The notes beneath the pieces are model-generated. The model had not been told where the DNA came from. It made no database searches and saw nothing but the letters and a program-made list of their open reading frames with translations. This document shows, piece after piece, positions 8,907 to 46,004 of a stretch of 64,000 bases of DNA (positions are counted from its first letter, which is position 1; every line of letters starts with the position of its first letter). Source of the stretch: an uncultured Acidobacteriota bacterium (GTDB lineage Bacteria; Acidobacteriota; Terriglobia; UBA7540); assembly GCA_963804995.1 (NCBI GenBank), contig CAWDSK010000003.1, positions 1,440,001-1,504,000 on the forward strand, written 5' to 3'. The translations under genes and the position numbers were made by a program.

Positions 8907-9080
8907 ACTTCCAGGCCGGCCAGCGAACACTCGGACTTTTTTCATCAGCTTGCTCATCCGACTGCGAGCGGGAGTCTACATCACGGCGAGCACTGCTTGC
9001 AAATTCCATTCAAAGTGCCGATTATGAGCGGTGGCAACAGTACCGATGTTGGATATAACGTTGGTGTCCGACGGCTGGCG

Positions 9081-10993
9081 GTTGCGGTAGGGATACCGGT
9101 TACCCGGTACCCCCCGCACGGATCCGTACGTGCGCTGGTTAGCGCATACGGCTCTTATCTCGGATGTGTGGCGGCGAACCGTTGGGATGGCCAAGGATGC
9201 ACAACGTGCGGAGCAGGCAACCAGCAGGCCGCAAGCTTCCCCAGTCGGTCCCAGTTGAGGCGGTGGCGTTGACTGCGTTGACGCAGTTGTGTTCGCCACA
9301 GTCGGGTCAACCGTTCCCGAAAGATTCGCAGGCGGTCGAGGTTTCCCGGTACCGCGTGATAGTTGAAGTAGCCTTGCACGACCGACCGGAGCCATTTACC
9401 CGTATCCGCGATGGGATCGTGCCGACGCTGCCGGAGTTGTTGCTTGAGTTCCTGCAACTTCCCCCGCAGGCGCTTGCTGATCGTCTTCCGCTTCACGGTA
9501 AATTGCCCCCTCCGGTTCTTCCCGCTGATATGCGTGAAGCCCAGAAAGTCGAACGTCTCCGGCTTACCTTCTCCTCTCCGTTTCCGGTAAAGTTCGGCAA
9601 ACGGCCCGAACTCGATCCGGCGCGTTTTGTCAGGATGCAGTTCCAATCCAAACTTCCCCACCCGCTCCCGGAAATCCTCCAGAAAGCGGTCGGCTTCCGT
9701 CTGCGATTGGAATCCAAGGACCGTATCGTCGGCATACCGCACCACGACCACGTCTCCCCGGGCGTGCTTCTTGCGCCACGCCTGCACCCACAGGTCAAAG
9801 ACGTAGTGCAGATAGATATTCGCCAGCAGGGGCGAGACCACCGCCCCTTGTGGCGTACCCATCTCCGTCTCCGACCATTCGCCTTCCTCCCTCACCCCGG
9901 CTTTCAGCCATTTCTGGATGAGCCGGAGAATCCGGGGGTCGGCGACGCGATGCTGCACGAACTTGAGCATCCATTCGTGGGATATCGAATCGAAAAATCC
10001 ACGAATGTCCGCGTCAAGAACGTAGTTCACGTGCTTCACCGTGAGCGCGTACGAGAGCGCGTCCAGCGCTTGATGCTGGCTGCATCCCGGTCGAAAGCCA
10101 TACGAGAAGCCCAGAAAGTCTTCCTCGTAAATCGCATTGAGGATGGTGACCACGGCCTGTTGGACGATCTTGTCCTCCAGTGCCGCAACCCCCAACGGAC
10201 GTTGCCGCCCGTCGCCTTTCGGGATATACGCCCTTCGCGAGGGCTTCGCTCGGAATGCTCCGCGGTGGACCCGGCTGTGCAGATCGACGAGTCGACCTTC
10301 CAGCCCGCTTTCATACTCCTGCCACGTCATGCCGTCTACTCCCGGTGCAGCTTTTCGCTTCAAGGCGTAAAAGCTTTCCCGCAGCAGATCGACCGTTAAG
10401 TGGTGGAGCAAGGCCGTGAACTTCATCTCCCTGTGTTCCTTCGCGGCTTTCCGCACACCCGCGAGTCCCTGGGACACGCGTGCCCCGCTCTGTGTCGGGT
10501 GCGTGTTAGGCCAACGGGTGTTCTCCTTGATCAGCGGCCTTCCCTCCTCATTCTCCGCCAACGGCTTCCCGTCTTTGTTCAAATGATTCATCGGTACTGT
10601 TCCGCTGTCCGACTCCTCGAAAGCGTGCAGGCGGGCTGTACGGCCATCGCCTTTTCCCGCCGTCCGGCCACGATCTACGGCGGCCGGCGCCTCCGAGGTC
10701 TCCCGGTTCTCGTGCAGAAAGTGTCTAGGCGTGTCTGGGGTCTACGACTACGCAGGACTGTGCCGGAACTCGCGTTGGCGTCCCGGCCTCATGTTGCCTT
10801 CCGTTTAGTCTGAAAACGTCGGCGTCCTGATTGGACATTTTCGAAGCTCAATACCCAGCCCACCTATTCCCCTGTTTACGCTTCACCGTGCGCCTCACGA
10901 CGCCCAGCGCAAAACTCGGGGCCGAGTGGATCGCTGCTCCTTCCTCGTGAGAAATTTTCATTCTCTGCTTTCTGCCGGTTTATCCCGGCGCAC
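9081..10993 (-). mobile_element. Complete group II intron, 1913 nt
   Basis: 5' end GTGCG at 10993; domain V GAGCCGTATGCG...CGCACGTACGGATC and domain VI ending CCGCAAC at 9081; removing it restores a repeat matching the intact copy at 11137-11170. Confidence 0.95.
9155..10591 (-). CDS. ltrA: Group II intron reverse transcriptase/maturase, no C-terminal endonuclease domain
   Basis: APGVDG, RPLG, SYGFRPG, DIRGFFD, GTPQG..SPLLANIYL, RYADD, FDFLGF, X domain YFNYHAVPGN. Confidence 0.95.
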   Translation of the reverse strand: MNHLNKDGKPLAENEEGRPLIKENTRWPNTHPTQSGARVSQGLAGVRKAAKEHREMKFTALLHHLTVDLLRESFYALKRKAAPGVDGMTWQEYESGLEGRLVDLHSRVHRGAFRAKPSRRAYIPKGDGRQRPLGVAALEDKIVQQAVVTILNAIYEEDFLGFSYGFRPGCSQHQALDALSYALTVKHVNYVLDADIRGFFDSISHEWMLKFVQHRVADPRILRLIQKWLKAGVREEGEWSETEMGTPQGAVVSPLLANIYLHYVFDLWVQAWRKKHARGDVVVVRYADDTVLGFQSQTEADRFLEDFRERVGKFGLELHPDKTRRIEFGPFAELYRKRRGEGKPETFDFLGFTHISGKNRRGQFTVKRKTISKRLRGKLQELKQQLRQRRHDPIADTGKWLRSVVQGYFNYHAVPGNLDRLRIFRERLTRLWRTQLRQRSQRHRLNWDRLGKLAACWLPAPHVVHPWPSQRFAATHPR

Positions 10994-11170
10994 CAGACCC
11001 CGGTACTTGGGGGTCTGCGATTTCCCAACGGGACTTTTAAGGGCTTGCGGCTGATCCCAGTGGGCTGGTAGTAGGCATGCTGTCGGAGAGTCCACTTGTG
11101 CCAATCCCGTGCCGGAAGAATGTCCTTTCAGGAAATCGCAGACCCCCAAGTACCGGGGTCTGCGCCAGCC
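10994..11170. repeat. REP doublet whose left arm is interrupted by the intron
   Basis: Inverted hairpins at 10994-11024 and 11131-11170 around a spacer homologous to 8590-8710. Confidence 0.85.
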
Positions 11171-11205
11171 AGCCGCCATAATCCAGCGGACCGGGGAGAA
11201 TCGAA

Positions 11206-12231
11206 ATGCTTCGCGCCACCATGACCAGTCCGGGGAAAATCGAGTTTACGGAAGTGCCGAAGCCTTTACTCGGCGACCACGACGTTTTGTTGCGCATCCG
11301 CCGGATTGGAATCTGCGGGTCTGATATCCACGTTTATCACGGTAAACATCCGTACACTTCCTATCCGGTTGTGCAGGGCCACGAATTCTGCGGGGAGGTT
11401 GCGGAAATTGGCCCGAGCGTCCAATCCTTTCACAGAGGCGATCTGGCCACGGCTCCTCCGCAGATTGTTTGTGGCGAGTGCCTGCCTTGCCGCGAGGGGC
11501 GCTATCACATCTGCGAGCGCCTGAAGGTAATGGGGTTTCAAGCCCCGGGAGTTGCGCAGGAGTTCTTCTCCCTCCCGGAATCTGCCTTGTTGAAACTGCC
11601 GGCAGGGTTCACGCTGGAATCGGGCGCGCTGGTTGAGCCGACGGCGGTCGCGATCCATGCCGTGGGCCGGGCGGGCAGTGTGGCGGGACTGAACGTGCTC
11701 GTCCTGGGTGCGGGACCCATCGGTAACCTGGTCGCCCAGGTGGCACGGTGGCGCCATGCTCGACGGGTAGCGATATCCGACCTCAGCAACCCGCGCTTGG
11801 AAATCGCCCGGCAATGCGGAATCGAACACACCATTAATTCCCGCGAGGCTCCTCTCGAAAATTACGTGGCGGAGGTGTTCGGCTCGAATCGCGCGGACGT
11901 GGCCTTTGAATGCGTGGGGGCCGCCGAAACCGCGAACCAGGCCATCCACAACGTCAGAAAGGGTGGCACCATTGTCGTGGTGGGGGTGTTTGGCGATCGC
12001 CCCCAGGTTGACTTGGGACTGGTGCAGGATCGCGAGCTCGAGCTGCGAGGGACCTTGATGTACCAGCGCCAGGACTACGTGGAGGCGATTCGCTGCCTCA
12101 GCGAGGGAGGTATCACGGTTGGCCCCCTGCTGACCAGGACATTCCCCTTCCGCCAATACCCCGAGGCGTATGCCTTCATCGAGGACAACCGCGAGAAGGT
12201 CATGAAGGTCATGCTGGAGTTTGACGAGTAA
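11206..12231 (+). CDS. Zn-dependent sugar-alcohol dehydrogenase (MDR family)
   Basis: GICGSD, GHE, CGECLPC...C, GAGPIG; divergent from the polyol ABC operon. Confidence 0.9.
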   Translation: MLRATMTSPGKIEFTEVPKPLLGDHDVLLRIRRIGICGSDIHVYHGKHPYTSYPVVQGHEFCGEVAEIGPSVQSFHRGDLATAPPQIVCGECLPCREGRYHICERLKVMGFQAPGVAQEFFSLPESALLKLPAGFTLESGALVEPTAVAIHAVGRAGSVAGLNVLVLGAGPIGNLVAQVARWRHARRVAISDLSNPRLEIARQCGIEHTINSREAPLENYVAEVFGSNRADVAFECVGAAETANQAIHNVRKGGTIVVVGVFGDRPQVDLGLVQDRELELRGTLMYQRQDYVEAIRCLSEGGITVGPLLTRTFPFRQYPEAYAFIEDNREKVMKVMLEFDE

Positions 12232-12444
12232 GTTGAGCGGGGCGGAAAGAAAAACGGTGTATACTTTGACCGGGTAAAACGACCAGAAGGGATTTTCGGT
12301 CAAGACGTCAAGGACCTACGGACCAAAACACTATTGCGCGTGACCGTTCTCAGGCACATTTTGTCGCTCGCCCACCGCTATCCGCCTCTGTCTTCTGTCA
12401 AAGGCCTGATTCTCCAAGACTTCTCCCCAGTGCGAGGAAGCCCT

Positions 12445-14502
12445 ATGAACAGCAGTATTCGCTTATTCAGTTTTGTCATGCTTTGTACAGCTTTGTCAAC
12501 TTCACCGCGGCTTGTTGCCCAAGAACGGCCAGACCGGGATCCGTTTCTCCACTGGATGGATGAGATTGCGCAGCGGCAACTTCGCGATCGGGAAAACACG
12601 ATTGCCGCCATCCACACTGTGGCTGAGGCGGAGCACCGAAAGCAGTACGTCCGGGAAAAGCTAATCGAGATTCTGGGTGGCCTGCCAAACTACAGCGGTC
12701 CGCTGAACGCCAAGATCACGGGTCAAATTCAGGGGGACGGTTACACCATCGAGAAGGTAGTTTTCGAAAGCTTGCCAAACTTCTACGTGACGGCCAATGT
12801 CTATCGGCCGAACCAGCCCGGGCGCTACCCCGGTGTGCTGCTTCAAGCGGGCCATACGCAGGAGGGAAAGCCGGAGGATCAACGGCTGGCCGCTAATCTG
12901 GCTCTCAAGGGATATGTCGTGCTGGCTTTCGATCCCATCGGTCAAGGCGAAAGGGAGCAGACCTATGACCGGTTGACAGACCGGGCTGCCGCGGGGTGGT
13001 CCGTACCCGAGCACATTCAAGGGGGGGCGGAAGCCCAGCTTATCAATGAGGGCATGGGCCGCTGGTTCATTTGGGATGCCAAACGCGCGATCGACTATCT
13101 GGAAAGCCGCCCGGATGTGGACGCTTCACACCTGGGAGCCGCGGGTTGCTCCGGCGGTGGAGCCTTGACAACCTATATTGGCGCTCTCGATACGCGGCTT
13201 AAGGCAGTGGCGCCTTCCTGCTTCACTCAATCCATGCACGTGTTGTTTACCGGCCCTGACCCTGATTCCGAGATGAGCTTCCCGAAATCTCTCGTGAGTG
13301 GCCTGGATCACGCAGATTTTGCGGAATTGGCTGCTCCCACTCCCTGGCTGTTCCTCGCGACTGAGGGTGATTTCTTCACCCCCACGGGAGCCAAGATGGT
13401 TTATGACGAGGCCCGGCGCTGGTACGCGATTTACGGGGCGGAGGATAAAGTTCGCTACTTTGTGGGGCACGGCCCTCATGGCACACCGCTCGAAACCCGG
13501 CAAATCATGTACGAGTGGTTCAACCGCTGGCTCAAGAATGGCCAGGGGGATGACCATGAGCTGCCGGTACATCAGTACGCCAACTTTGAACTTCTGGCGA
13601 CGCCCACGGGTCATGTGGATGACTTGCCGGGTAGTCGTAAGGTCTATCAATTGATCATGGATGAGCTGCGTGCCAAGGAGCAGCCCGGAACAATTCCCGA
13701 TCTCTTGGCGGAGCTGCGAAAGTTGGGGGTCCCCACCGACGGTACTCCTCCCGATGTGAAGGTTGTCGATGATTCAAGAGTTCCCGAGGGCCGGCTTGAG
13801 CGCATCCGTTTTGAGAGTGAACCGGGCGTGGAGATTGGCGGAAAGCTCTACATTCCGGATTCCGCGGGGCGGAAGCCGGCAGTGCTGCTAGTGGCGGATG
13901 AATCCAGGAACTATTGGGTTCTGCCTACTGACGCGTTAGCTAAGAGGATGGCGAAGTTGGGGCGAGTCGTTCTCGAACTGGAGGTCCGTGACTCTCCGGG
14001 TGAACAAGGGCGGCCGTTTATCGGAAATTGGCAGACTAATGCCCGTGCCGATCAAATTGGGCGCAACCTTCCGGCGATGCGCGCGCATGACATTCTGCGT
14101 GGCATCGATGTGCTCACCGCACGCAGCGATGTTGACCCGGCCTCAATTCATGCGACTGCGCGGGATGCGAAGGGAGTTTGGCTCCTGCTGGCAGCAGCGA
14201 TGGACACCAGGATCAGCAAGATCTGGTTGGATAAGACCCCGTACAGTGTGCGGGAGGCTTTGAATCGGCCCATGAACGAAAACCTATTCGACGCGGTGAT
14301 TCCCGGCTTCGCGCTGCGTTGGGACTTGGAGGATCTGACCAAGGCTATGGGGAACCGTCCAGTGTTGTGGACCGACCCAAAGAACTGGCTGGGCAAGATT
14401 GTTCCTCTCGGTTCCACCTATCGGTACCGGTACGTGACTGGGGATACGACGGACCTGCTCAATGCACAAGACGACGAGATTATGGATGACTTCCTGAAGT
14501 GA
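12445..14502 (+). CDS. Secreted two-domain alpha/beta hydrolase (acetyl xylan esterase-like)
   Basis: Signal peptide; FES.P..YVTANVY.P, DPIGQGER, GCSGGG nucleophile elbow. Confidence 0.85.
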   Translation: MNSSIRLFSFVMLCTALSTSPRLVAQERPDRDPFLHWMDEIAQRQLRDRENTIAAIHTVAEAEHRKQYVREKLIEILGGLPNYSGPLNAKITGQIQGDGYTIEKVVFESLPNFYVTANVYRPNQPGRYPGVLLQAGHTQEGKPEDQRLAANLALKGYVVLAFDPIGQGEREQTYDRLTDRAAAGWSVPEHIQGGAEAQLINEGMGRWFIWDAKRAIDYLESRPDVDASHLGAAGCSGGGALTTYIGALDTRLKAVAPSCFTQSMHVLFTGPDPDSEMSFPKSLVSGLDHADFAELAAPTPWLFLATEGDFFTPTGAKMVYDEARRWYAIYGAEDKVRYFVGHGPHGTPLETRQIMYEWFNRWLKNGQGDDHELPVHQYANFELLATPTGHVDDLPGSRKVYQLIMDELRAKEQPGTIPDLLAELRKLGVPTDGTPPDVKVVDDSRVPEGRLERIRFESEPGVEIGGKLYIPDSAGRKPAVLLVADESRNYWVLPTDALAKRMAKLGRVVLELEVRDSPGEQGRPFIGNWQTNARADQIGRNLPAMRAHDILRGIDVLTARSDVDPASIHATARDAKGVWLLLAAAMDTRISKIWLDKTPYSVREALNRPMNENLFDAVIPGFALRWDLEDLTKAMGNRPVLWTDPKNWLGKIVPLGSTYRYRYVTGDTTDLLNAQDDEIMDDFLK

Positions 14503-15659
14503 TGACTCAAGTGCAGCAGGCAAAGCGTTCTCGAAGGATAGTGGGCGCAATGGCACCGGCGATATTGCTGGTGGCGGCGGCATCCGTGTTGACCTTACCG
14601 CCACAAAAAGGAATACAGGCGGGTGTGACCCAAGCCTCACTGGATGGGAAGGAAGGCGCCGCAGTAACAGAGCGGGCCGGGGGCAATCCGTTCGTCCCCA
14701 TTGTACTTTCTCAATCGGGGCCGTCCCCGTACCGCTTGGCATCGATGTCCACGCTGAGACTCACGATGACCGGGCACACCGACCGTGTTTTCAGTGTGGC
14801 CTGGAGCCCTGACGGCAAGCGCCTGGCGACGGGGAGTGCCGACGGCACCGCCAGGGTTTGGGATGCCAATAGCGGGAAGGAATTACTCGTCTTACGCGGC
14901 CACCCCGACTTTGTTTGGAGCGTTGCCTGGAGCCCTGACGGTACGCGCTTAGCCACCGCCAGCGAGGACAACACGGTGAAGGTTTGGGACGCCGCGAGCG
15001 GTATGGAATTGTCGACGTTGAGGGGCCACACCGAATCCGTCCAAAGTGTGGCATGGAGTCCAGATGGCAAGTTCTTGGCGACCGCTAGCCGTGATACCAC
15101 GGCGAAGGTGTGGGATGCCGCGAGTGGTAAGCTACTCCAGACCATGAAGGGCCACATTGACTACCTGTGGGACGTGGCCTGGAGCCCGGACGGCACGCGC
15201 TTGGCGACGGCCAGTTGGGATACCACGGCGAAGGTGTGGGACGCCGCTAGCGGCAAGCTTCTTGTGACCCTGACCGGCCACGTTGCAATTGTTTACTGCG
15301 TGGCTTGGAGTCCCGATGGCAAATTCCTGGCCACGACGAGTGACGATCACACCGTGAAGATCTGGGACGCGGAAAGCGGCAAGGAATTGCGCACCCTCAA
15401 CGGCCACGAGGGCTTTGTCTTGAGCGCGGCTTGGCGCCCTGACGGCAGGCTCCTGGCGACGGGCAGTGTTGACCACACCGTAAAACTATGGGATCCGAAG
15501 GATGGAAAGCTCCTGGATACCCTGGAGGGCCACGGCGGGGTCGTTTGGAAAGTGGCGTGGAGCCCGGATGGCTCGCGCCTGGCGACGGCCTGTGGAGACT
15601 TCAAGGTCAGAGTGTATAACGTCGGGGCCGGCAGTGCAGCGCGCACACCCGTAACTTAA
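14499..15659 (+). CDS. WD40 beta-propeller protein with N-terminal signal/anchor
   Basis: About seven 42-aa units GH...V.SVAWSPDG..LATxS.D.T.KVWD. Confidence 0.92.
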   Translation: MMTQVQQAKRSRRIVGAMAPAILLVAAASVLTLPPQKGIQAGVTQASLDGKEGAAVTERAGGNPFVPIVLSQSGPSPYRLASMSTLRLTMTGHTDRVFSVAWSPDGKRLATGSADGTARVWDANSGKELLVLRGHPDFVWSVAWSPDGTRLATASEDNTVKVWDAASGMELSTLRGHTESVQSVAWSPDGKFLATASRDTTAKVWDAASGKLLQTMKGHIDYLWDVAWSPDGTRLATASWDTTAKVWDAASGKLLVTLTGHVAIVYCVAWSPDGKFLATTSDDHTVKIWDAESGKELRTLNGHEGFVLSAAWRPDGRLLATGSVDHTVKLWDPKDGKLLDTLEGHGGVVWKVAWSPDGSRLATACGDFKVRVYNVGAGSAARTPVT

Positions 15660-15687
15660 TTTTGAAAAATCAGGCGCGGAGAGAATC

Positions 15688-16302
15688 ATGAGTCTTTCCC
15701 GAAGGCGGATGATGTATAGCCTGGCGGGCTTGGCAGGCATGACCCGGAATTTTACGGCCCTCCACGCTCACCATCACGCTCCGCGGTTTGGCAAGCGTGC
15801 CCTCGAAGCGTCTCTCGCCGCATCCGGCAGCATGGCGGACAAAGCTCCCGGCGTCAGCGGCCAGGGAGACATGAAATTCAAAGTTCTATACACATCTGAC
15901 CATCTTCCCCCCGAGGCCCAGAAAGCGCTGGTGAACGCGCATGGCGGGTTTGCCGTGGATCGCCGACCCGGGCATGACGAGGCTTATTTCGCCCTTCCCG
16001 GAGCAGGCATTCTCCAGATTAGTTCGGATTTTAAAACCATTAACCTGCTCAACACTCCGGATGAAATGCGCAAGGTAAACCTGCACGACACCAACATCTG
16101 GTACGACAAGGAGGGAACGCCTTACCTGGTTTTCCCCGCCAATAGTGAGGGTAAGATCTTCACCACCATGATTAAGGAAGACCTGGGATTGCCGAACTTC
16201 CTCCACATCCACAATGCCGCCCTACGGAAGATCGGGAGCAAGTTTTACATCCTGGCGCTGGCATGGAATCCCGGCGACTTCGCCATCCTGGAACAGGCCT
16301 GA
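15688..16302 (+). CDS. Tat-exported hypothetical protein, possibly an internally deleted beta-propeller
   Basis: SRRRMM twin-arginine motif; AHGGFAVD, HIHNA, WNPG motifs. Confidence 0.55.
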   Translation: MSLSRRRMMYSLAGLAGMTRNFTALHAHHHAPRFGKRALEASLAASGSMADKAPGVSGQGDMKFKVLYTSDHLPPEAQKALVNAHGGFAVDRRPGHDEAYFALPGAGILQISSDFKTINLLNTPDEMRKVNLHDTNIWYDKEGTPYLVFPANSEGKIFTTMIKEDLGLPNFLHIHNAALRKIGSKFYILALAWNPGDFAILEQA

Positions 16303-16735
16303 AGATCGGGGCGTTGGGTGGTGCATTTTGGAATGTATGTGACGGGCTGGCGCATCAGAGCGAGCCCAGCTCTGCGATTCACGTGTCTGACCTTGCCCGC
16401 TGATCATTGGGTGGTGAAGTAACCCCTCACCCGCCTGCGGACCGAAGCTGATGTTGTTTACATCTCACGGGTACCCCTTCGGTGGGCGTAGGCCCGTCGC
16501 GCTTCCCGATGAAGTACATCGGGACAGCACGCCACCCTCTCACCTCGGAGAGGGCTATGAATTCAACTTCTAACCCGCCGAACCCGTACGCGCTATGCTT
16601 GCTGACTGGAAGCCAACGCGTCCTCAGAAAGCACAGAGAGATAACATCCCACCGAACCAAGTCGTGCGTAGCGAGCATTCCCCCGCAACCTTCACGCCGG
16701 GCCAGGTTGACATTATGTCGATACCAAAAGAGTAC

Positions 16736-16764
16736 TTGACAGAGGTCAAAGTCAGGAGTATTCA
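16736..16764 (+). promoter_or_regulatory. Sigma70-like promoter overlapped by a TTGAC-N4-GTCAA palindrome
   Basis: TTGACA-17 nt-TATTCA upstream of the TonB receptor; ttgacagaggtcaa at 16736-16749. Confidence 0.5.
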
Positions 16765-16976
16765 TGTAGGCGGATAATCAAGACATACCCCTTCCGCCCA
16801 CCCCACACCGGTGGGCCCGCGATCGGGTTGAGGTTTGGTGTAGTCCACGTTTTAGGTTCACGAATCGGCGTGCAAGCGCCGAAGATGAAACGGTCCTCAG
16901 GTTAGTTTAACACTGCTTTTTGGTAGTCAACTTTATCGCGTCGGGTCTGGGTCACAATCGAAGGAGGACAATCATT

Positions 16977-20585: not shown

Positions 20586-20630
20586 ATCTGCTGGGAGAAT
20601 GCACTTCGTGTTTTTTAGTGGTTATTGAAG

Positions 20631-20672
20631 AATGCCCCGCCGGGCTTGCTGTTCCGGCGGGGCGTTTTGTTT
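20631..20672 (+). terminator. Rho-independent terminator
   Basis: gccccgccgg-10 nt-ccggcggggc followed by gttttgttt. Confidence 0.8.
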
Positions 20673-20689
20673 GTGGAGGACTCTTGCGA

Positions 20690-20810
20690 AGGACCCCGAA
20701 GGGGTCCAAGATAACTAGCCGTGGGTGCAACCTACGGAAGACTGTGCCCCTGGTGAACCCGACCCCGAAGGGGTCCGAGATCATTACAATTGTGGCCCCT
20801 CAAAGGGGCC
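20690..20810. repeat. REP-like cluster of gaccccgaaggggtc hairpins
   Basis: Three short palindromes (20692, 20761, ~20795). Confidence 0.65.
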
Positions 20811-20977
20811 GGACAAGCAAGAGCCCCCTCACCCGACCTCGTCCCTCGGCCACCCTCTCCCCTCGGAGAGGGATGGGGTCTGCTGGGTGCGCCTCCGGTG
20901 GTTGCTGGGGGCGCCGAACGTCGAAAACCCGACTGGCCATTGTACTCAGAGGCGGTCAGGCGTATGCTGACGGCCTA

Positions 20978-21184
20978 GTGTGGTGTCCCGGATAATATTT
21001 GACAAGGCTGTCCGACCCCCTCACCCCCCATCCCCTCTGTCGCCGCGGCGACCGAGGGGAGAGTTAATTCCCTTGCCCTCGCCCCTTTGGGGGAGAGGGT
21101 GGCTGGTCGAGGCGTTCTCATCAGCCGAGGCCAGACGGGTGAGGGGGTTCTACCCATTGTCAACTCTAGCACGGGACACCACAC
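20978..21184. mobile_element. MITE-like element with 13-bp terminal inverted repeats enclosing a palindromic repeat
   Basis: gtgtggtgtcccg ... cgggacaccacac. Confidence 0.6.
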
Positions 21185-21259
21185 GAGAATCAAAAAAGGA
21201 AATTCCGGCTTGCATCAAGTACCGTTATCCAGTGCGATTCAGGCAGGCGGAGCGAATTC

Positions 21260-22478: not shown

Positions 22479-22484
22479 ACCGAC

Positions 22485-30829: not shown

Positions 30830-30847
30830 CCGAACAAAGGTCCAGCG

Positions 30848-33232: not shown

Positions 33233-33533
33233 GGGCTGAAAACGCTGAGGGGGAAATTCCAATCACGCGCCCGCCGGACGTTACCCCCTCTGGCGACGCT
33301 GACATCCAAGAAGCTTGTTTAACTTTTGCCCTGTATTCCTTAGGCTAACGGCAACCCGACTACACGAAACTAGCTCCGTTTTTTTGAGACTCGTAGTATC
33401 CGCAGCCTATTAAGGCCTTGTCAAGCGGAAACCCGGGTGTCGGGTAAAGACGAGACTCAACATTGGCTAGCTGCAGGTCAAATTCCGGGTTCCGAGTTTC
33501 GAATTTCGAGTTTCGCCCCTGACACCTGATTCT

Positions 33534-34983: not shown

Positions 34984-35275
34984 TTGAAAACCTCCCGAAG
35001 AAACATTCTGACCTAATTCCTGTTGCAGGCGATAACTATATTTGGCCACTACCAAGCTGTGGTCAAAGGCGAACGCCCTGAACTGTGGCGCCCCATTTTC
35101 GGATTTTTTTGATGTTCTACTCCGGGACCTGGGTTATTCATTCTTTGATGATCTGCGCCTCAGAGTGGGATATTCTTCAGGGCTCGGAGCCATGCGATCG
35201 TTTTGATAACATATTTACGCGCGATACAAGACTTGAATCCGGCGAGGTTGATTATTCTGATGAGGAGGCGCGCCC

Positions 35276-38011: not shown

Positions 38012-38211
38012 GCCCCTTTCGCTGGCGCCACGATGGGGCTCACAAAGTGGCAGGCTTCCCTTGGTTCGTAGGCTAAGGTCATAAGCCGAATCTTCTCGCT
38101 CTGGGCGGGAAAAGGTATTCGAGCCGCGCGCCAATGCCTCGGAGTAGTGATACTATCTCGCGGGGATGGCTTGATCACTGGGTTGCGGCTCCACCGCGCT
38201 AAGCTACCTGC

Positions 38212-39570
38212 TTGTTGGAAATCGCGAAGGACATCGTGGTGATTAATTCCAATCCGAAACCGACCGTGGTGCGAAAGAGAATCCTCGCCATCCTCGTGCT
38301 CTTCAGCCTTTTCTGTTATCTGCTCAGGATGAACATCTCGGTCGCGCAGCAGTTCATGGTCCCTGAGTTGGGATTGAGCGACATTCAAGTCGGTCAAATC
38401 TTCAGCGCGTTCATGGTGGGGTACGCACTGTTCCAAGTTCCCACCGGCGTTTGGGGAGATCGCAAAGGCCCGCGCTTCGTCCTGGCTGTGGCAATGCTGA
38501 GCTGGGGTGTCATGTCTTTGCTGACGGGGCTTATACCCGGACTCGTGGTGCGGGGTGCAGCCGCCGCCTTCATCTCCTTGTTGATTTTGCGCTTCCTGTT
38601 GGGCGTGGGAGAAGCCGCGATGTATCCGGTGGCGGGCCGGGTGGTAGCCAACTGGATGCCCGTCCAGGAACATGCGTTCTCGAACGCGGTGGTGATGGCT
38701 GGTAATACGGTCGGCTCGGCCCTGGCGCCGCCGCTGATTGCCTACCTGATGCAGAACTTCGGCTGGCGATTCTCTTTTTACCTGACAGGCTTCTTCCCTT
38801 TTGGCCTCGCGCTGCTGTGGTGGTGGCAAGCCCGCGATCACCCGGAGCAACACCCCGCAGTGAACCAGCAGGAACTCGCCCTGATTGCGGGTGGTCGGAA
38901 GGCAACGAGCGCAATGAGTCACGCTTCCTCCTGGTGGGCCTTGTGCAGGAATTGGAATATCGTGTTTCTTTGCCTGAGTTACTTTCTCACCAGCTACGTC
39001 ATGTTCGTCTTTGTATTTTGGCTGTACAAATACTTCGTGGACGTGCGGAAGTTTACGGTCATGGGTGGGGGTTGGGCCCTCAGCCTGCCCTTTGTAGTGG
39101 CCACGGTGGCGCTGCCGTCGATCGGCTACCTGAGTGACCGTCTCGCAGCCCGCCGGGGAGCCCTTACCGGACGCCGGACAGTGGCGATGGGCTGTTTGGT
39201 GTTTTGCGGGCTCATGCTGCTCGCGGGAGCGGAGGCCACCAGACCTTGGATGGCAGTCGCCACCATCTCGCTGAGCGTCGCCTTCCTGTTCAGCACCGAG
39301 GGCCCCTATTGGTCGACGATCATCAGGCTGGCAGGCCCGAATGCCGGCGCCGCGGGTGGCCTGATGAATATGGTGGGCAATCTCGGTGGTGCGGTTTCGA
39401 CTGCGGTGGTGCCGTTCCTGGTGCATATGATGGGTTGGCTCGGGGCGCTCGCCAGCGCATCGCTCTCGGCCTTCATCGGTGCGGCCTTCTGGCTGCTCAT
39501 CCGCGCTGACTCCAAATTGCCGGTTGAGACGTTGAGCGGGACAGAGGCGACCGCGGGAGCAGCAAGTTGA
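38212..39570 (+). CDS. MFS transporter, anion:cation symporter-like (sugar-acid type)
   Basis: RMNISVA, GYALFQVPTG.WGDR.GPR, RFLLGVGEA..YP; start uncertain (38212-38267). Confidence 0.88.
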   Translation: MLEIAKDIVVINSNPKPTVVRKRILAILVLFSLFCYLLRMNISVAQQFMVPELGLSDIQVGQIFSAFMVGYALFQVPTGVWGDRKGPRFVLAVAMLSWGVMSLLTGLIPGLVVRGAAAAFISLLILRFLLGVGEAAMYPVAGRVVANWMPVQEHAFSNAVVMAGNTVGSALAPPLIAYLMQNFGWRFSFYLTGFFPFGLALLWWWQARDHPEQHPAVNQQELALIAGGRKATSAMSHASSWWALCRNWNIVFLCLSYFLTSYVMFVFVFWLYKYFVDVRKFTVMGGGWALSLPFVVATVALPSIGYLSDRLAARRGALTGRRTVAMGCLVFCGLMLLAGAEATRPWMAVATISLSVAFLFSTEGPYWSTIIRLAGPNAGAAGGLMNMVGNLGGAVSTAVVPFLVHMMGWLGALASASLSAFIGAAFWLLIRADSKLPVETLSGTEATAGAAS

Positions 39571-39914
39571 ACTGTCGAACCCAAGCCGACGAACCGTATT
39601 AGCTCCAATGCTGTTCACTTATGACCTCTCAGGGAGAATGTTTCGTGCTTGAACTAGAACCCCCTCACCCCCGGCCCCTCCCCCAAAGGGGCGAGGGGAG
39701 AGTTGATTTGAATATACTGCCCTCGCCCCCTTGGGGGAGAGGGTGGACCGTCGCCGGCGTTTTCATCAGCCGGGGCGGGACGGGTGAGGGGGTCACCCAG
39801 TAGCATATTGAGAAAACATTTCCGGAAGCCTCTTGAGTGAACAGTATTGCTATTTGCGCGAACTTGTCTTGGTTTTGACCGCCAGAAGAAATCGATAAAA
39901 CGGGGTGAATATTC

Positions 39915-41358
39915 ATGAAGGGCCAAGCGATCGGTGAACATGCGGACATTGCGTTGAGAATGCTTACACTTCCGCAAATTGAAAAAATTCATCAGGCGAC
40001 GCTCGATATTCTGGAGCGGACTGGGGTCCAGGTGCGTGATGCTGAGGCACTCGCGCTCTTGAAACGAGCGGACGCGAGCATCGAGGGCGAGCGGGTTCGC
40101 ATGCAAGCCCAGCTTGTGGAACGCGCCCTTCGGACGGCCCCGCGAAGCATCCCGATTTACAACCGCAGCGGTGAACCGGCCATGTGTCTTGAAGGTTGGA
40201 AATCCTATTTTGGCACGGGGTCTGACTGCCCCAGCGCGATCGACCCGGATACAAACGCGCATCGACCGAGCACCAAGGCCGATGTCGGCCGCATCGCGCA
40301 ACTCTGCGATAAGTTGCCCAACATCGACTTCTGTATGTCGATGGGCATTGCTTGGGACGTCAGCACGGTGACGAGTTTTGTGCACCAGTTTGACGCCATG
40401 GCACGCCACACCTCGAAACCTTTGGTCTACACCGCTCAGGACGTAGACGAACATGCGCGACATCCTGGGGCTCGCTGAGATCGTCGTGGATGGCGGCAGC
40501 CGTGAGCTTGAGGAGCGTCCCCGCTACATTCATTACAATGAGCCGATCAGCCCCTTGCACCACAGTCCCAACGGGTTGGCCAAGCTCCTGTTCTGCGCCG
40601 AGCATAAGATTCCGATGATCTACATCGGCAGCCCCATGATGGGAGCCTCCGCGCCCGCGACCATGGCGGGGTGTATCGCTTTGGCGAATGCGGAAGCGCT
40701 GTCGGGTCTGGTGATTCATCAGATGAAGAATCCGGGCGCTCCGTTTGTGTTCGGCGCTGACGCCACGCTGATGGACATGCGCACCGCCATCTTTGCTTAT
40801 GGCGCGCCGGAATTGCAGATCATGAACATCGCCTTCGCTGATCTTGCGCACCACTATCATTTGCCCTTCTTCTGCATTGCGGGGGCCACGGATTCCAAGG
40901 TGCTGGACGCTCAGGCCGGAGCGGAAATGGCGGCCTCCCTGCTGGTGAGCGCGCTCAACGGCTGCAACCTGATTCACGACGTGGGGTATTTGGAAAGTGG
41001 ACTGTGCTGCTCGATTGAAAGCGTGGTCATGGCAGATGAGATTATCGGCATGGTCAAACGCTACCGCAGCGGGTTCGAGATCAGCTCCGAGACGCTGGCT
41101 CTGGACATCATCGACGAGGTCGGCCCGCAAAAGGATTACCTCGGCCACGCGCACACAGCCGAGCATTTCCGGAAAGAGGCGTGGTATCCCGAAGTGTTTG
41201 ACCGCGGGAGGTATGAAAGCTGGTTGGAAACCGGAGGCGAACCCATCGAGGCGCCGCTTCGCAGGAGGGCGCTCAAACTTCTTGCCACCGCCGAGCCGCA
41301 GACCTTTACAACGGGTCAAATGGTAGCAATGGAGCATATTCTGACGCAAAGAGGTTAA
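39915..41358 (+). pseudogene. MttB-superfamily (trimethylamine methyltransferase-like, non-pyrrolysine) gene with +1 frameshift at ~40450
   Basis: IEKIHQATLDILERTGV; ISPL, MGASAP.TMAG, NAEALSG, DMRT, GAPE, TDSK..DAQAG.E, GYLESG; split into ORFs 39915-40478 and 40453-41358. Confidence 0.85.
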
Positions 41359-41404
41359 TATTGGGGATCTATCCCTAAGCCCAAAAGTACCCGAAACCTG
41401 GAAC

Positions 41405-41665
41405 CTAACCCCTTTTATTTTCATAAACATCTTAGAAAGCCAACTATAACTATCGTATTTTCAATAATATGGTAGAAAGCCGAAAATCAGACATTTTTTC
41501 TATACTTGTTTTCAACAACATAGTTAAACATACCTTCATTTTTACCCCCCGCGTTTTGGATCCCCCAAGCCGACCCATCCTGCTAACTGGTTTAATTGCA
41601 ATGGCTTGACAATTTTGGCAAGTCACCGTGAATTCTACTAAGCGCCTTTATTATCATCAACATAG
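41405..41665. repeat. AT-rich element with repeated TTT(A/G)TTTTCA-NN-AACAT units
   Basis: Units at 41414, 41454, 41505 and 41647; related element at 53955-54100. Confidence 0.65.
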
Positions 41666-41825
41666 TCTGAGGAAAACTTTTCCCTTTCCCGCCATAACAT
41701 TTCAAACCACTTCTTCCCCCACCCCATTTCCCAGCCACGAATCCCACATCTCTAAAGCTTCCATCCTATGTTGGTGGCTTTTGCGTGGGCCGATAGTGGT
41801 GTCATTTACTGTGCCACGGGCGGGA

Positions 41826-41959
41826 GAAGCTGTGAAAGAATCCCTGAACGAACAAAAGCATCTCGCGCCGAGACGCAGAGGCGCAGAGAAAACAAATCAG
41901 TTATTAAATCTCTGCGCCTCAGCGGCTCTGCGCGAGATTATCTATTTTTTCACAGCTTC
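41826..41959. mobile_element. MITE-like element with gaagctgtgaaa terminal inverted repeats
   Basis: gaagctgtgaaa ... tttcacagcttc; related copy at 48231-48353. Confidence 0.65.
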
Positions 41960-42199
41960 GGACGCCCGTGGCACTTCCTAATGACACCACCACCCACCGG
42001 GCTCGCAAAAAAGTTGGAATCTCCCATTCTCCCCATGAACTGCGCGTTGGGAAGTGTGAGCCTGATTTCCCCAGCAAGTTTCGGGTACCTCGGTGGCGGA
42101 CTGCCTCGCAACAAAACAATTCTCCACTTAATAGCCTAACAGGGGCCCGGCCATTGTCAAGAGAGATATCTATACATGGGCTACCGGTAGCCCAAATCG

Positions 42200-42319
42200 T
42201 AAAGGAGGAGCGGGAACGATCAGGGCGTGCCAGTGGTCCGGCATGAATACGTAACCGGTAAGGAGGAACTTCCCACGTGTACGTACGCCCCTAATCGCAC
42301 CCGCCAGGCCCTTCGCCAT
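42200..42319 (-). pseudogene. Fragment of a REP-associated tyrosine (Y1/HUH) transposase
   Basis: Translates ...RGKFLLTGYVFMPDHWHALIVP, matching the YVxMPDHxH signature. Confidence 0.75.
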
Positions 42320-42480
42320 AGGGGGAGTCGCCGCGGCGACCCGTCCCCTGGTTCTGCTGCACCATGCGGAACGCCGGGTAGGGCAACCTGTCCCGACGAA
42401 GTCGGGAGCCCTACCCCTACATCGCGTAGTCGCATTCACCCGTTCGAGCGGCGCCTGAGGTGGTGTGACCCGGAGGTGGC
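42319..42480. repeat. ~160-bp REP-containing direct repeat, copy 1 (copy 2 at 43194-43351)
   Basis: gcggaacgccgggtagggcaacctgtcccg.cgaagtcgggagccctacccctacatc...gtgtgacccggaggtggc. Confidence 0.85.
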
Positions 42481-42617
42481 AACGTATCGCAACGGGTCCA
42501 TCTTGAATCATTGGCGAGGACGGAGCTTTCCAACCTGAAAAGCGAAACGCCCGGCATCTTCCGCTGACCTGTTCAACGGAGTTGCTTCGGAGCTGCTTTT
42601 CCCGTATTCTGGGAGCC

Positions 42618-42857
42618 ATGGAAATACATTTCACCCCCGAGCAGGAAGCGCAGCTTGCGCAAATCGCCAGTGATGCAGGCACCGACGCCGAGCAGTTAGC
42701 GAAGGGTGCCGTATTGCGTCTGCTTGCGGGAGATACTGGTTTCCGTGCAGTACCTCCCGGCAGTGTGGTTGCCGAGATGCGTGCGTTACGCGCCCGCGTC
42801 AAACCTGACCCCGAAGGCTGGACAACGCGCGATTACGTCCACTACGGTCGCCGCTAG
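42618..42857 (+). CDS. Antitoxin partner of a PIN toxin (VapB-like)
   Basis: MEIHFTPEQEAQL...RDYVHYGRR; abuts the PIN gene (TAG-ATG). Confidence 0.7.
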   Translation: MEIHFTPEQEAQLAQIASDAGTDAEQLAKGAVLRLLAGDTGFRAVPPGSVVAEMRALRARVKPDPEGWTTRDYVHYGRR

Positions 42858-43067
42858 ATGCCTCTGGTCGTCGATGCTTCCGTTGCCCTTGCCTGGGCTT
42901 TGCCCGATGAAAGCAGCGCCTATGCCGACGCCGTTTTAGCCGTCGCTGAGCGGGAAGGTTTACGTGTCCCCGAGCTTTGGGCGCGGGAAAGACTGACCCT
43001 TGCCACTCTCGATACGGCGATGCGCAAGGCTGCCGAACAATCCGGGGTGACGATTTTCCGGCAGTAA
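42858..43067 (+). pseudogene. vapC: VapC/PIN toxin with internal in-frame deletion
   Basis: N-terminal VVDASVALAW..PDE joins C-terminal LATLD..MRKAA in only 69 aa. Confidence 0.75.
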
Positions 43068-43071
43068 GCAG

Positions 43072-43163
43072 GTAGCTATCACGGTCAATTCGCCTTTGGA
43101 TTTGACCGTCGGTTCGTCGTCGAAGGAAAAGCGCACCTTCACGAAAGTATTGACCGTGGCTAC
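43072..43163. repeat. ~90-bp REP-like element (gtagc..cacggtcaa...ttgaccgtggctac); second copy at 43346-43433
   Basis: Direct comparison of the two copies. Confidence 0.8.
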
Positions 43164-43441
43164 GCGCTATTTGGTGATCGAGTTGCTCAAGGCGTAGGGG
43201 GACGGCTCGCCGCCCCCTGGTTCCCCATTCACCTTGCGGAACGCCGGGTAGGGCAACCTGTCCCGGCGAAGTCGGGAGCCCTACCCCTACATCTCGTACT
43301 TGCCTTCACCGGTTCGAACGGCGCCTGAGGCTGTGTGACCCGGAGGTGGCCACGGCCAATTCGTCTTGGGAATTGACCGTAGGTTCGTCATCGAAGGAAA
43401 AGCTTACGGCCACATAAGCAGTGACCGTGGCTGCCTGCCGG

Positions 43442-43786
43442 CTACGGTTCATTTAGGAGCGATTGCACTTCGCGGCGCAGGGTGGGCAGATTGGTTTCAA
43501 GGACGCCCCAAACCACTTCATCGGAGACGAAAGCGTAACCATGAATCAGCCGGTTGCGAAAGGCGACGATCCGGCGGCAGTCGCTAACATGCTGAGTGAG
43601 GTCAGGGTACAGGCGGAGGGCTTGATTGAGGGCCTCCCCCATGATTTCGAATTGTCGCTCCACCGCCGATCTCAGAAGAGCGTCCGCAGTATAGTCAGTA
43701 AAGGCTTTACCACGCGTGAACTGAGTGAGCAGGTCACAAGCCTGAGCGATATCGAACAGGTACTTGCGCACTTCAAGCGGCAACAT
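43442..43786 (-). CDS. HEPN (DUF86/HepT-like) toxin
   Basis: AVERQFEIMGEA, RNRLIHGY (R-x4-H-x-Y). Confidence 0.9.
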   Translation of the reverse strand: MLPLEVRKYLFDIAQACDLLTQFTRGKAFTDYTADALLRSAVERQFEIMGEALNQALRLYPDLTQHVSDCRRIVAFRNRLIHGYAFVSDEVVWGVLETNLPTLRREVQSLLNEP

Positions 43787-44084
43787 AAAGCTGTACCTGG
43801 GTCTTTTCGATCGCCTGCCGAAAATAGGGATTGCGAATCGGGCCGGGTTCAATTAACTCAATGGGCACGCCAAAAAGCCGCTCCAGGTCCTCTTGCAGTC
43901 CAAAGAAATTGTCCGCATGCTGACCAGGACGTACCGGCTGGAACTCGACAAGGAAATCAAGGTCGCTGGACGCGGGGTCGAACCCACCGCTCGCTGCCGA
44001 GCCAAACAGAGCCAGGCGACGCACGCCGCGGTTGTTGCACAGCGCCACCAGATCCTTGAGCTTTTCTTGCACAACCGCCGTCAT
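43773..44084 (-). CDS. MNT nucleotidyltransferase antitoxin
   Basis: LFGSA...SDLDFLVEF, NPYF; overlaps the HEPN gene start. Confidence 0.9.
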   Translation of the reverse strand: MTAVVQEKLKDLVALCNNRGVRRLALFGSAASGGFDPASSDLDFLVEFQPVRPGQHADNFFGLQEDLERLFGVPIELIEPGPIRNPYFRQAIEKTQVQLYVAA

Positions 44085-44352
44085 CGCTCCCTCTTTCCCT
44101 ATCATACCTCAGTTCGCGGCATGAATATTGTTTTGCCAAGGGTTCGCTGCCAGAAATAACAAACGTGGCGCGGACCTGTTTTGTGAGCCCACGGCACTCG
44201 GGCGTAACCGAACCGAAAGCCGCAGAGCTTGAAATGCGGCTCTGATGTTATGAAAGCGGCGATGCCTCCTCGGGTGCCGCTAAACTGGAGGTGGTCCAGT
44301 TTAGCGGGCCCTCGGGTTCAGACCGAGAGTTTTGCATCGAGGAGACAAAGCG

Positions 44353-45453
44353 ATGAAGAAGAGTATAACGCCCATTGGAACGCCGGTGGGAGTGGATGTT
44401 CACAAGCGTCGTTGCCAGGTGGTGGAGCTTGATCACGGAGAGATTAAGGCACGGAAGTCGATCGCCAACACGCGGGAGGAGTGGCTGGAGATGTTGACGG
44501 AACTTCCTCCCGACGCCGAGATCGGCCTGGAGGTGAGCACGGCAGGCTACTTTGCCATGAGCGTGCTGGAAGAGGCGGGGTGGCGAGGGCGCGCGCACTG
44601 GGTGCACACGGCGGGGATCGACAGCAACCGCCGGCAGAAGAATGATCGTTTAGATGCCGAGCGGCTGGCGCGCAAGCTCGCCGCGCACCATCTGGATCCA
44701 CTGCCGGAGGCGTGGTTTCCGCCGCCGGAGATTCGCGCCCTGCGTCTGCGCGCACGCCAGCGCTGCTGGTTGGCCCTGCTGCGCACCAAAGCCAAGAATC
44801 ACCTGCAAAGCTTGCTGGGGATGCATGGCTTGCAGGCGCCGGGGACCGACCCGTTCGGAGCGGCCGGGGAGAAGTGGCTGGCGGAACAGACCTTGCCGAT
44901 GCCCTTGGGCGAAAGCATCCCTCAGATCCAACGCCTGCTGCAGTTCCTGGAGGAGGAGATCGGAATCAGTGAGAAGTACTTGCAGGCGGTGGACGGACAA
45001 TTCCCCGAGTTGGCGCTGCTGCGCACAATCCCCAGCATCGGCCCCATCCTGTCCCCGGTGATTTGGAGTGAGATCGGCACGATCGAGCGGTTTCGTTCCG
45101 CCAAGGCCTTGGCCAACGCTACGGGGCTCGTCTCCAGCTTTTACGACAGCGGGGAAGTGAAGGTGTCGGGTCCCATCACCCGCCAGGGATCGCGCTGGCT
45201 GCGCTGGGCCTTCGTCACCGCCGCCCATGTCGCGATTCCATACCCCCATCCTTTCGCGCGGCGCTACCACCGCCTGCGCCGCAGCAAGAAACCCAACGTG
45301 GCCAAGGCCGCCATCGCGCACTCCTTGGCGCGTTGTGCGTATGGAGTTTTGAAGCACGGCTGCCCTTATCGGGAAGACCGTTGGGGCCGCCAAGTCGGCG
45401 TACTGGAGCAGGAAGCCCGTGCTGGCGCTAGGTACACCAAGACCGCGCTCTGA
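44353..45453 (+). CDS. IS110-family transposase/recombinase
   Basis: RuvC-like GVDVHK, GLEVS, KNDRLDA; TIPSIG; YDSG catalytic Ser region; ITRQGSRWLRWA. Confidence 0.95.
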   Translation: MKKSITPIGTPVGVDVHKRRCQVVELDHGEIKARKSIANTREEWLEMLTELPPDAEIGLEVSTAGYFAMSVLEEAGWRGRAHWVHTAGIDSNRRQKNDRLDAERLARKLAAHHLDPLPEAWFPPPEIRALRLRARQRCWLALLRTKAKNHLQSLLGMHGLQAPGTDPFGAAGEKWLAEQTLPMPLGESIPQIQRLLQFLEEEIGISEKYLQAVDGQFPELALLRTIPSIGPILSPVIWSEIGTIERFRSAKALANATGLVSSFYDSGEVKVSGPITRQGSRWLRWAFVTAAHVAIPYPHPFARRYHRLRRSKKPNVAKAAIAHSLARCAYGVLKHGCPYREDRWGRQVGVLEQEARAGARYTKTAL

Positions 45454-45960
45454 TAGGGACCTGCTCCCGAACAACCTCATGGGGACCAGGACAACCTGGC
45501 TAGCCCGTAGAGATGAAAGGGACCGAACCGACTCAGCAAACTCGCATGGCAAGAGCAAGAACCCAACGCCCACGGGGCCGTGCTTCATCCCCGGCAGGCG
45601 GCGGGGAGCCAACCCTCCCCGCCCCCCGGGCTCTACATAAAGGAGGAACGACTATAACTTGGAATAATTCTATAAGATAATACGTACAGAATGGCAGCCG
45701 ACGGCGAAGTCGGCAACCCGCCACTTTGCCGATGGGGTCCGGCGCGTTTTTCAGGCATGGGGAAGCTGTGCCCAGAGCTTGGGAGGGGGGCGACCGCAGG
45801 CCGCCCCGGCGTCGTTTCCATCAGCCTCCGACCGGCTATTCCTCAGCGGGTTGCTCGCCAGCAGAGCCCGCCTCCGCTTCACCGGCTGCAGGCCATTCTG
45901 AAGTCGAAGGGGGAAGTTTGTCAAAGGCAATTAAGAAATTCAAAAAATCGGCTTGACACG
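45454..45960 (+). ncRNA. Putative bridge/seek RNA-encoding region of the IS element
   Basis: Downstream position as in IS1111-type elements; contains AGAGATGA (45509-45516), identical to the predicted circle junction. Confidence 0.45.
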
Positions 45961-46004
45961 GCATCGCGGTTTCAGAGATGCGCCAGCCCGCCAGCAGAAA
46001 GTTC

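Follow-up and report, generated by a model that had tools for sequence, protein, structure and literature searches.

A group II intron and an IS110-family element inserted at the same point of one superfamily of REP hairpins in an acidobacterial genome

Can two mobile elements with unrelated RNA-guided machineries come to use the same address in a bacterial genome? The question is raised by a 64,000-nucleotide stretch of DNA (the window) from an uncultured Acidobacteriota bacterium (assembly GCA_963804995.1, contig CAWDSK010000003.1, positions 1,440,001 to 1,504,000), in which a group II intron on the minus strand and an IS110-family insertion sequence (IS) on the plus strand each interrupt a hairpin of the repetitive extragenic palindromic (REP) type. 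These two unrelated RNA-guided elements are inserted at the same point of one REP hairpin superfamily. Each active element of this genome uses its own hairpin variant, an arrangement that represents a common address format more than competition for sites. In the following, G000 is the genome of the window and C1, C3, and so on are its contigs; G001, G005, and G026 to G028 are genomes of relatives, and L numbers designate loci. Those relatives that have named records belong to the Acidobacteriota, most of them to the Terriglobia.

Both insertion junctions were as the first-pass annotation of the window had given them. The 5' exon of the intron ends in GGGGTCTG (at 10994) and its 3' exon starts with CGCCAGCC (at 9080), a junction that cannot be shifted. 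The IS lies between GCGGCTCTG on the left and CGCCAGCC on the right. Both IS junctions carry TG (44243-44244 and 45979-45980), and thus the sequence places the IS within a 2-nucleotide core rather than at a single nucleotide. The claim that both elements occupy the equivalent nucleotide would therefore hold if IS cleavage falls 3' of the TG core, as it does in IS621, but from sequence alone it extends only to the 2-nucleotide core. The left guide of IS621 pairs with the bottom strand and its right guide with the top strand, which is cleaved 3' of the core (PMC11208158). By analogy, the first nick of the IS would be at TG^CG, 3' of TG, on the same strand and at the same bond into which the intron splices.

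Junctions of all copies in the genome were tabulated, and the intron was found at hairpin-YG^CGC[CT]A in 38/38 copies and the IS at GCTCTG^CGCCAG in 4/4. Besides these 38 full intron copies, the genome contains 2 half copies at contig ends. Immediately before the intron, the six bases were GGTCTG in 32 copies, GGTCCG in 4, and AGTCTG in 1, with 1 copy cut by a contig end. Thus, RGTCYG precedes all 37 copies with a full flank, and CGC[CT]A follows all 38 (23 CGCTAC, 13 CGCCAG, and 2 others), an agreement not attributable to chance. The near-identity of the 38 copies (22 variable columns of 1914) implies recent intron mobility. The four IS copies (2 intact, 1 interrupted by IS630, and 1 frameshifted) all have GCTCTG before and CGCCAGC after them, and paralogous and homologous copies gave no indication that the IS ends anywhere other than at 44245 and 45980. 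The junction was equivalent in every copy, and one REP superfamily is targeted by both elements. The other four of the eight IS110 recombinases in the genome belong to a sister IS that is 58% identical and has the same ends. It was found at CCGTG^GCTACC in 4/4 copies, one base nearer to a GTAG foot.

The interrupted repeats have the features of GTAG REPs: high copy number, a hairpin with a GTAG-type tetranucleotide foot, frequent inverted doublets, and flanking genes for REP-associated tyrosine transposases (RAYTs). When hairpins that end in YG-CG plus a foot were sought across the genome, 685 empty sites were found, versus 64 in a reversed-genome control. The foot was GTAG at 465 of these sites and CTGG (on the other strand) at 116; CTGG is outside the REP variants given in the accessible part of PMC3733652. 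By the six bases before the junction, the variants were GGTCCG (109 copies), GGACCG (106), GGTCTG (105), ACTCTG (69), GCCCTG (38), CACCCG (37), GCTCTG (30), and AGTCTG (17), and an additional REP type ending in TG-G-CTAC had 110 copies. An inverted partner was within 330 nucleotides of 24 of the 38 intron-occupied REPs. Both empty REPs previously annotated in the window were present, and the one at 11137-11170 is identical to the intron-occupied REP, of which it is the inverted partner. The other belongs to a paralogous empty doublet (11017-11092 matches 8590-8666 at 84%).

It could be supposed that the repeats are not host REPs but scars or ends originating from one of the two elements and that the shared junction is a by-product. 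However, there are 685 empty sites of many variants, and the ends of neither element resemble the hairpin. Furthermore, 5 of the 14 Y1_Tnp matches lie among REPs, with variant-specific flanks (GCTCTG/GCCCTG, ACTCTG, or GGTCTG); the presence of Y1 transposase genes among the repeats indicates that these are REPs with their RAYTs. The RAYT association and the census refute a scar origin, which we consider extremely improbable.

Several other elements are associated with palindromic repeats in this genome. Two IS families (10 and 7 copies; G000 C1:581168 and C1:533405) enter hairpins, including several REPs, and duplicate them whole, and a 1390-bp family (6 copies) targets a different palindromic repeat. 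Tandem introns and REP units repeated around introns were found at G000 C6:2168571-2172663, C7:1-3889, and C3:1076894-1078809, which suggests that REP unit amplification accompanied or followed intron insertion at these loci.

The prediction that both elements are RNA guided was borne out, because exon-binding site 1 (EBS1) of the intron and the IS target-binding loop are both readable and both covary with the target. The domain I loop UCAGACU, the source of EBS1 CAGACU, is invariant in 38/38 copies, and its pairing with intron-binding site 1 (IBS1) is perfect or wobble in 33/37 copies, with one mismatch in the other 4. EBS1 shifts with the target in relatives, being CGGACU in G005, CAGACC in G026, UGGCUA in G027, and CAGAGC in G005 and G017.

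For the IS, alignment of the region behind the open reading frame (ORF) revealed a stem-loop (about 45405-45470) in which two segments vary; these serve as left-target and right-target guides. The guides were surveyed at 117 loci, from which 6 were excluded (duplicates, mis-oriented, or frameshifted); 104 had the loop, yielding 80 distinct rows. The right flanks of L063, L076, and L108 were blanked as mis-called. The left guide matched the observed flank at 3.46 of 4 positions in the 68 rows for which a left flank was available (permuted mean, 2.04; maximum of 2000, 2.49), and the right guide run matched at 6.13 of 7 positions in 61 rows (permuted, 3.85; maximum, 4.72), a comparison that is not an independent test because the rows are related. 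Single switches were also found: L120, L087, and L152 each pair an odd target with a correspondingly odd guide. A CTAC or CCAG foot is encoded by 76/80 guides, and the target guides are reprogrammed across the same REP variants as the intron, with natural retargeting over at least 10 REP variants. On the recombinase tree (FastTree, 69/80 rows), rows of different target classes are intermingled, which indicates that the IS has been retargeted repeatedly. For example, the sisters L078 and L080 differ in target, and L127 and L128 are nested in a GCTAC clade.

The target-binding loop (45406-45453, plus strand) lies within the recombinase ORF. The guide encodes the last 15 residues, and the stop codon uses the TG of the guide core; thus, retargeting alters the recombinase tail. 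The ORF of the sister IS ends before its target-binding loop. A candidate left-donor guide was located, and no right donor guide was identified in the IS. Two other candidates were rejected as guides: the variable stretch 45770-45790, which holds CAGAGC but does not track the target across relatives, and CGCCAGCAGAGC at 45856, which is identical in the sister IS, whose target differs. No Rfam family matched the IS right end, which also contains a conserved hairpin motif (45827-45888, plus strand) that has no Rfam match and is common to many unrelated contigs of four public sequencing runs. The public runs came from relatives only (best share, 0.32). Contigs of two RNA runs covered the predicted guide RNA region (45407/45425-45599/45605), one at a depth of 55.8 versus 2-6 for ORF contigs; such contigs, which show neither level nor ends, are a weak hint that the guide RNA is expressed in relatives. 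No circle joint of the IS was present in contigs from 4 runs of relatives.

The EBS1 guide does not by itself account for the choice of site by the intron. RGTCTGC occurs 2061 times in the genome, and therefore EBS1 plus one base is insufficient. In REPs whose mirror arm has the same RGTCTG^CG, that arm was occupied in 0/165 cases versus 38 occupied on the foot side, indicating that the intron reads the foot side. On the G-rich strand, 25/61 sites with hairpin and foot were occupied, versus 2/23 sites without a hairpin (p 0.004). The strand also mattered, because occupancy was 25/61 (41%) on the G-rich strand versus 6/91 (7%) on the other. The sense strand of the intron was the locally G-rich strand in 34/40 copies and was so by whole-contig skew in 36/38. 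Empty GGTCTG REPs were depleted on the G-rich strand (25/105), whereas GGTCCG REPs were not (54/109). In the window, the partner REP at 11137-11170 is on the disfavored strand and is empty. IS insertions had no strand bias (3/8).

The shared site had been described as possibly contested, a description that does not fit this genome, in which the active elements were never on the same REP variant. None of 37 intron sites was of the GCTCTG variant and none of 4 IS sites was of the RGTCYG variant, because the two guides differ at the -5 base. Therefore, the site is at present partitioned rather than contested. About 26 sites are guide-perfect for the IS, of which 4 are occupied and 22 are empty. 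Convergence is upheld at the level of the families. L081, L083, and L096, relatives of the IS with 87-88% identical recombinases and matching guides, have both ends in GGTCTG^CGCTAC, the commonest target of the intron. RGTCTG|CGC is specified by 8 of the 80 IS guides; one of these, L127, specifies the very site of the window intron. Within G000, EBS1 CAGAGC is present in a truncated intron relic (C1:441118) that comes after a GCTCTG hairpin, the variant used by the window IS, and an intron fragment (C5:460087) comes after the GTAG strand of the REP of the sister IS. In G027, one REP type serves both an intron with EBS1 UGGCUA (three 5' ends) and an IS whose guide reads ACCGTG|GCTAC; the junctions of the two flank the same TG/CA pair, and the UGGCUA intron lineage uses the other strand. 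G005 has CG-core variants occupied by six introns with EBS1 CGGACU, together with a frameshifted IS whose guide encodes GGTCTG|CGCTAC. In G026, the intron is in GGTCTG and the IS is in GCTAC types.

These results are consistent with a model in which two guide-programmable families settled independently on the hairpin/foot boundary of the GTAG-type REPs of this acidobacterial genus and were each retargeted among REP variants. EBS1 of the intron ribonucleoprotein would pair with six bases of the 3' stem arm, and EBS3 would pair with the next C. The complex would further need the foot-side CGC[CT]A, probably read by protein, would prefer a hairpin upstream, and would reverse-splice into the lagging-strand template. 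In the 3' bridge or seek RNA of the IS, a left guide for the bottom strand of that stem arm would be combined with a right guide for CG plus the foot. Recombination would take place at the fixed TG core, with the first nick presumably at the bond that the intron attacks. The outcome for both elements would be a hairpin upstream and a foot downstream. The elements would meet there because this short stretch of the REP is both conserved and asymmetric. The stem arm holds one conserved TG, adjoining the foot, and the bond would be shared because the IS depends on TG, of which that stretch has only one, and because the intron lineage mostly needs the +1 C. Either insertion destroys the joined target for the other element, so that sites would be taken on a first-come, first-served basis. 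A stem-loop 5' of its target gives ISPpu10 an approximately twofold gain (bioRxiv 10.64898/2026.03.19.712850), and the insertion sites of class C introns lie behind hairpins, so that hairpin reading from this side has a precedent in each of the two protein families. We consider the model as a whole, that is, independent convergence on a conserved, asymmetric hairpin/foot boundary under guide constraints, to be likely. Its strength and those of the alternatives discussed below overlap in part.

Several observations weigh against this model. EBS1 has a mismatch (GGTCCG) in 4/38 intron copies, and five G005 copies with EBS1 CAGACU and 1 of the 3 G026 copies are away from REP feet. Many relatives of the intron, including more distant ones, target non-REP DNA, which indicates that foot reading is lineage-specific. 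The preference for a hairpin may reflect sequence context or the purging of genic insertions rather than structure. The GC skew is weak, and the strand bias was read from skew rather than from a located origin and terminus. The IS has only 4 copies in this genome, and its cut position is borrowed from IS621. The guide of L010 in G001 encodes GGTCTG|CGCTAC, yet both observed right flanks are TGCTAC, and the guides of L078, L091, and L077 are partly mismatched to their sites. The register can move, as the sister IS and the UGGCUA intron show, and the shared bond may be chance among 10-34 conserved registers.

This last point is the core of an alternative in which REPs are hit because they are abundant and harmless and the bond is shared without further cause. 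In a set defined around the junction, 10 seven-base words are present in at least 93% of the 105 GGTCTG REPs and 34 (14 with the +1 C) are present in at least 60%. The odds of a match are thus roughly 1 in 10 to 1 in 34, which the 2-nucleotide core doubles, making a register match unlikely yet not remarkable (roughly 3-15%). The displacement of the sister IS by one base relative to the foot, the use of the other strand by the UGGCUA intron, and the entry of two other IS families into REP hairpins by whole-hairpin duplication all speak for a coincidental register. However, the empty mirror arms (0/165) and the foot-reading IS guides (76/80) tie both elements to the foot side in a non-random manner. 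Pure coincidence of register is unlikely, though it deserves to be taken seriously.

Alternatively, selection may fix the bond. Insertion at this position would keep a near-intact hairpin upstream, insulating the element from host transcription and sparing REP function, and would part it from the tetranucleotide that RAYTs need, with competition splitting the guides by character displacement. Both families have the same polarity, and 5/6 REP-targeting EBS1 types are in the equivalent YG^CG register, but these types are probably one clade rather than independent events, and the genomes are few. Competition could explain why partition is full in G000, where each of the two IS variants has a dead intron relic (C1:441118 and C5:460087), and why the six G005 introns use CG-core variants that are unusable by an IS whose frameshifted copy encodes GGTCTG|CGCTAC. 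The intron fills 41% of suitably oriented sites, but the IS is on only 4 of about 26 guide-perfect sites, and thus sites are not limiting for it. Furthermore, in G027 the guided IS and the intron are in the same REP type. Fixation by selection is accordingly rather doubtful. The same low probability is given to the broader proposal that a retroelement family and a family of bridge recombinases diversified in step with a single host repeat family, the guides of both being retargeted while selection held the bond and competition drove the guides apart within a genome.

Independent convergence on the hairpin/foot boundary is the reading that we favor. By sequence alone, two RNA-guided machines of unrelated chemistry are seen to read the same 12-14 bases of one repeat, and the guides of both could be identified and are reprogrammed in nature. 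The loci supply ready guide/target panels both for a TG-core IS1111 recombinase and for an intron that lacks an endonuclease and apparently recognizes a hairpin with its foot. Competition among repeat-targeting elements, the use of a stem-buried IBS1 by an intron, and the possibility that REPs are sinks that let the cell tolerate about 40 intron copies can now be tested. A safe-harbor role of the REP site, as had been suggested, is plausible. If the co-diversification proposal were true, REP homing would join the target classes of bacterial group II introns as a fourth, and guide-RNA competition could be studied in the intron/IS pair as a natural system.

The features of both elements and of the REPs in the window are listed in Table 1. 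The intron has the hallmarks of group II, with a domain I and domain V-VI fold (Rfam D1-D4-6 match, 170 bits), a GUGYG start, and an AY end. No endonuclease domain was matched by Pfam in its ORF. The intron does not conform to class C (IIC), because its EBS1 is 6 nucleotides rather than shortened and its sites are REP stems without a U-run; its nearest plasmid relatives (57-61%) carry no class label. One intron sub-lineage (L187-L197 and L201 in G005, L176-L190 in G001, and G000 C1:441118) starts with GA[AT]AGCG, not GTGCG. Because this start was seen in many copies, the sub-lineage is probably mobile with its non-canonical 5' end. L197 is an ORF-less 651-nucleotide member, in a REP. The intron at L038 in G028 has EBS1 CAUACG, a 3' exon starting with CGCCAC, and a 5' flank off the contig; it fits a CGTATG-CG-CCAC REP variant with 14 copies in G000. 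Three other group II intron families in G000 (C1:25682, C1:98198, and C9:153945; 6, 3, and 1 copies) have targets unlike these REPs.

The DEDD and Tnp20 domains, the sub-terminal inverted repeats, and the long right end place the IS in the IS1111 group. Its non-coding ends are 527 nucleotides on the right, downstream of tnp, versus 108 on the left. The terminal extensions are 6 bp (left) and 4 bp (right) plus the 2-nucleotide core, compared with a group norm of 7 (or 6) and 3 bp, and the ends and TG core are kept in relatives from the genus and from metagenomes. In a circular intermediate, the candidate -35 box would be directed toward the left end. In the copy at L002, an IS630 element (L002:1498-2596; G000 C3:1380797-1381895) lies between the target-binding loop and the donor guide and probably inactivates the guide RNA. 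The window IS is flanked on the left by a HepT/nucleotidyltransferase toxin-antitoxin-like pair (43442-44105, minus strand) and on the right by a BlaI/BlaR1-like pair (46055-48003, plus strand).

Table 1. Positions in the window of the intron, the IS, their guides, and the REPs
Feature	Position	Strand	Remarks
Degenerate REP (CTGG foot, shortened hairpin)	8567..8592	-	Left member of empty inverted doublet; paralogous to intron-bearing doublet
Empty intron-type REP (GGTCTG-CG-CCAG)	8711..8744	+	DNA fold, -12.3 kcal/mol
3' exon of intron	9073..9080	-	Last 2 bp of REP stem plus foot (CCAG, complement of CTGG); +1 C is IBS3
Group II intron	9081..10993	-	1913 nucleotides; endonuclease-minus; starts GTGCG, ends AAC
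Intron domains V-VI	9081..9156	-	Rfam RF00029, 39.2 bits, E 1.5e-5; slightly below 40-bit cut-off
Reverse transcriptase/maturase	9155..10591	-	478 amino acids; YADD; in domain IV; TIGR04416, 342.7 bits (cut-off, 300)
EBS1 (CAGACU)	10807..10812	-	Domain I d3 loop; pairs with RGTCTG
5' exon of intron	10994..11019	-	REP hairpin; 3' arm is IBS1 (GGTCTG)
Empty inverted partner REP, identical to occupied REP	11137..11170	+	On C-rich (lagging-like) strand, rarely used by intron
Left half of IS target	44221..44244	+	GCTCTG-variant REP hairpin, ending in TG core
IS110-family, IS1111-group element	44245..45980	+	1736 nucleotides including one TG core; DEDD plus Tnp20; NCBIfam IS110 above cut-off
Left sub-terminal inverted repeat	44251..44266	+	
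DEDD/Tnp recombinase	44353..45453	+	366 amino acids
Right-target guide (GCUGGCGC)	45421..45428	+	Complement of right flank CGCCAGC
Left-target guide plus core (GCUCUG)	45447..45452	+	Same as left flank, hence pairs with bottom strand
Candidate left-donor guide (AGAGAUGA)	45509..45516	+	Matches end-to-end junction of element; conserved in relatives
TTGACA, candidate -35 box	45953..45958	+	
Right sub-terminal inverted repeat	45960..45974	+	14 of 15-16 positions alike with left repeat
Right half of IS target	45981..45988	+	CG plus CCAG foot

In the literature searched (main texts only, with few subscription papers), neither a REP-homing intron nor an intron/IS110 pair at one REP bond was found. 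The three group II intron specificities given in the accessible text of PMC4424553 are homing sites, terminators, and attC, without REPs, and only 2/9 Pseudomonas putida introns were REP-associated (PMC1525189). The window intron resembles the class C introns found after terminators (PMC4424553) in its many copies and its insertion directly 3' of a hairpin but differs in that IBS1 is within the stem, with six base pairs and no U-run. With the class D introns RmInt1 and RmInt2 (PMC5894124) it shares an endonuclease-minus protein, a multicopy target, a bias for the lagging-strand template, and recognition of the 3' exon; the targets of those introns, however, are IS elements, not REPs (PMC5894124).

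IS110-family elements that target REPs include IS621, ISPa11, ISPpu9, and ISPpu10 (PMC11208160, PMC11208158, PMC1525189, and bioRxiv 10.64898/2026.03.19.712850), and ISPpu9 and ISPpu10 are at one common position in P. putida REPs. Like these elements, the window IS has left and right target guides, a 2-nucleotide core duplicated at the ends, and a stem-loop 5' of the core. Unlike them, it has a TG rather than a CT core, a guide in the right end that overlaps the end of the ORF, a site shared with an intron, and a family naturally retargeted over at least 10 REP variants. IS1111 seekRNAs have the top-strand match 5' of the bottom-strand match (PMC11187229); the window IS has this guide order, with a geometry as in IS621.

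An intron and an IS are alternatives in one region in the case of GBSi1 and IS1548 of Streptococcus agalactiae, but about 88 bp separate those sites, and IS1548 falls outside the IS110 family (PMC2875397). The closest precedent is at attC sites, which are targeted by group IIC-attC introns and by the IS1111-attC elements ISPa21, ISPst6, and ISKpn4 (PMC3001079 and PMC11187229). As in the window, a group II intron and an IS1111-type element use one multicopy folded site, with insertion close to the same end and a common orientation. The REP case differs in the nature of the site and in the full 6-nucleotide covarying EBS1 of the intron, and its two junctions map to the same dinucleotide. Thus, IS110 elements in REPs, as well as class C introns and IS1111 elements that both insert in attC, were already known. 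The guide of the IS, its natural reprogramming over the REP variants of the intron, the partition of sites within a genome, and their overlap in relatives are what the present analysis adds.

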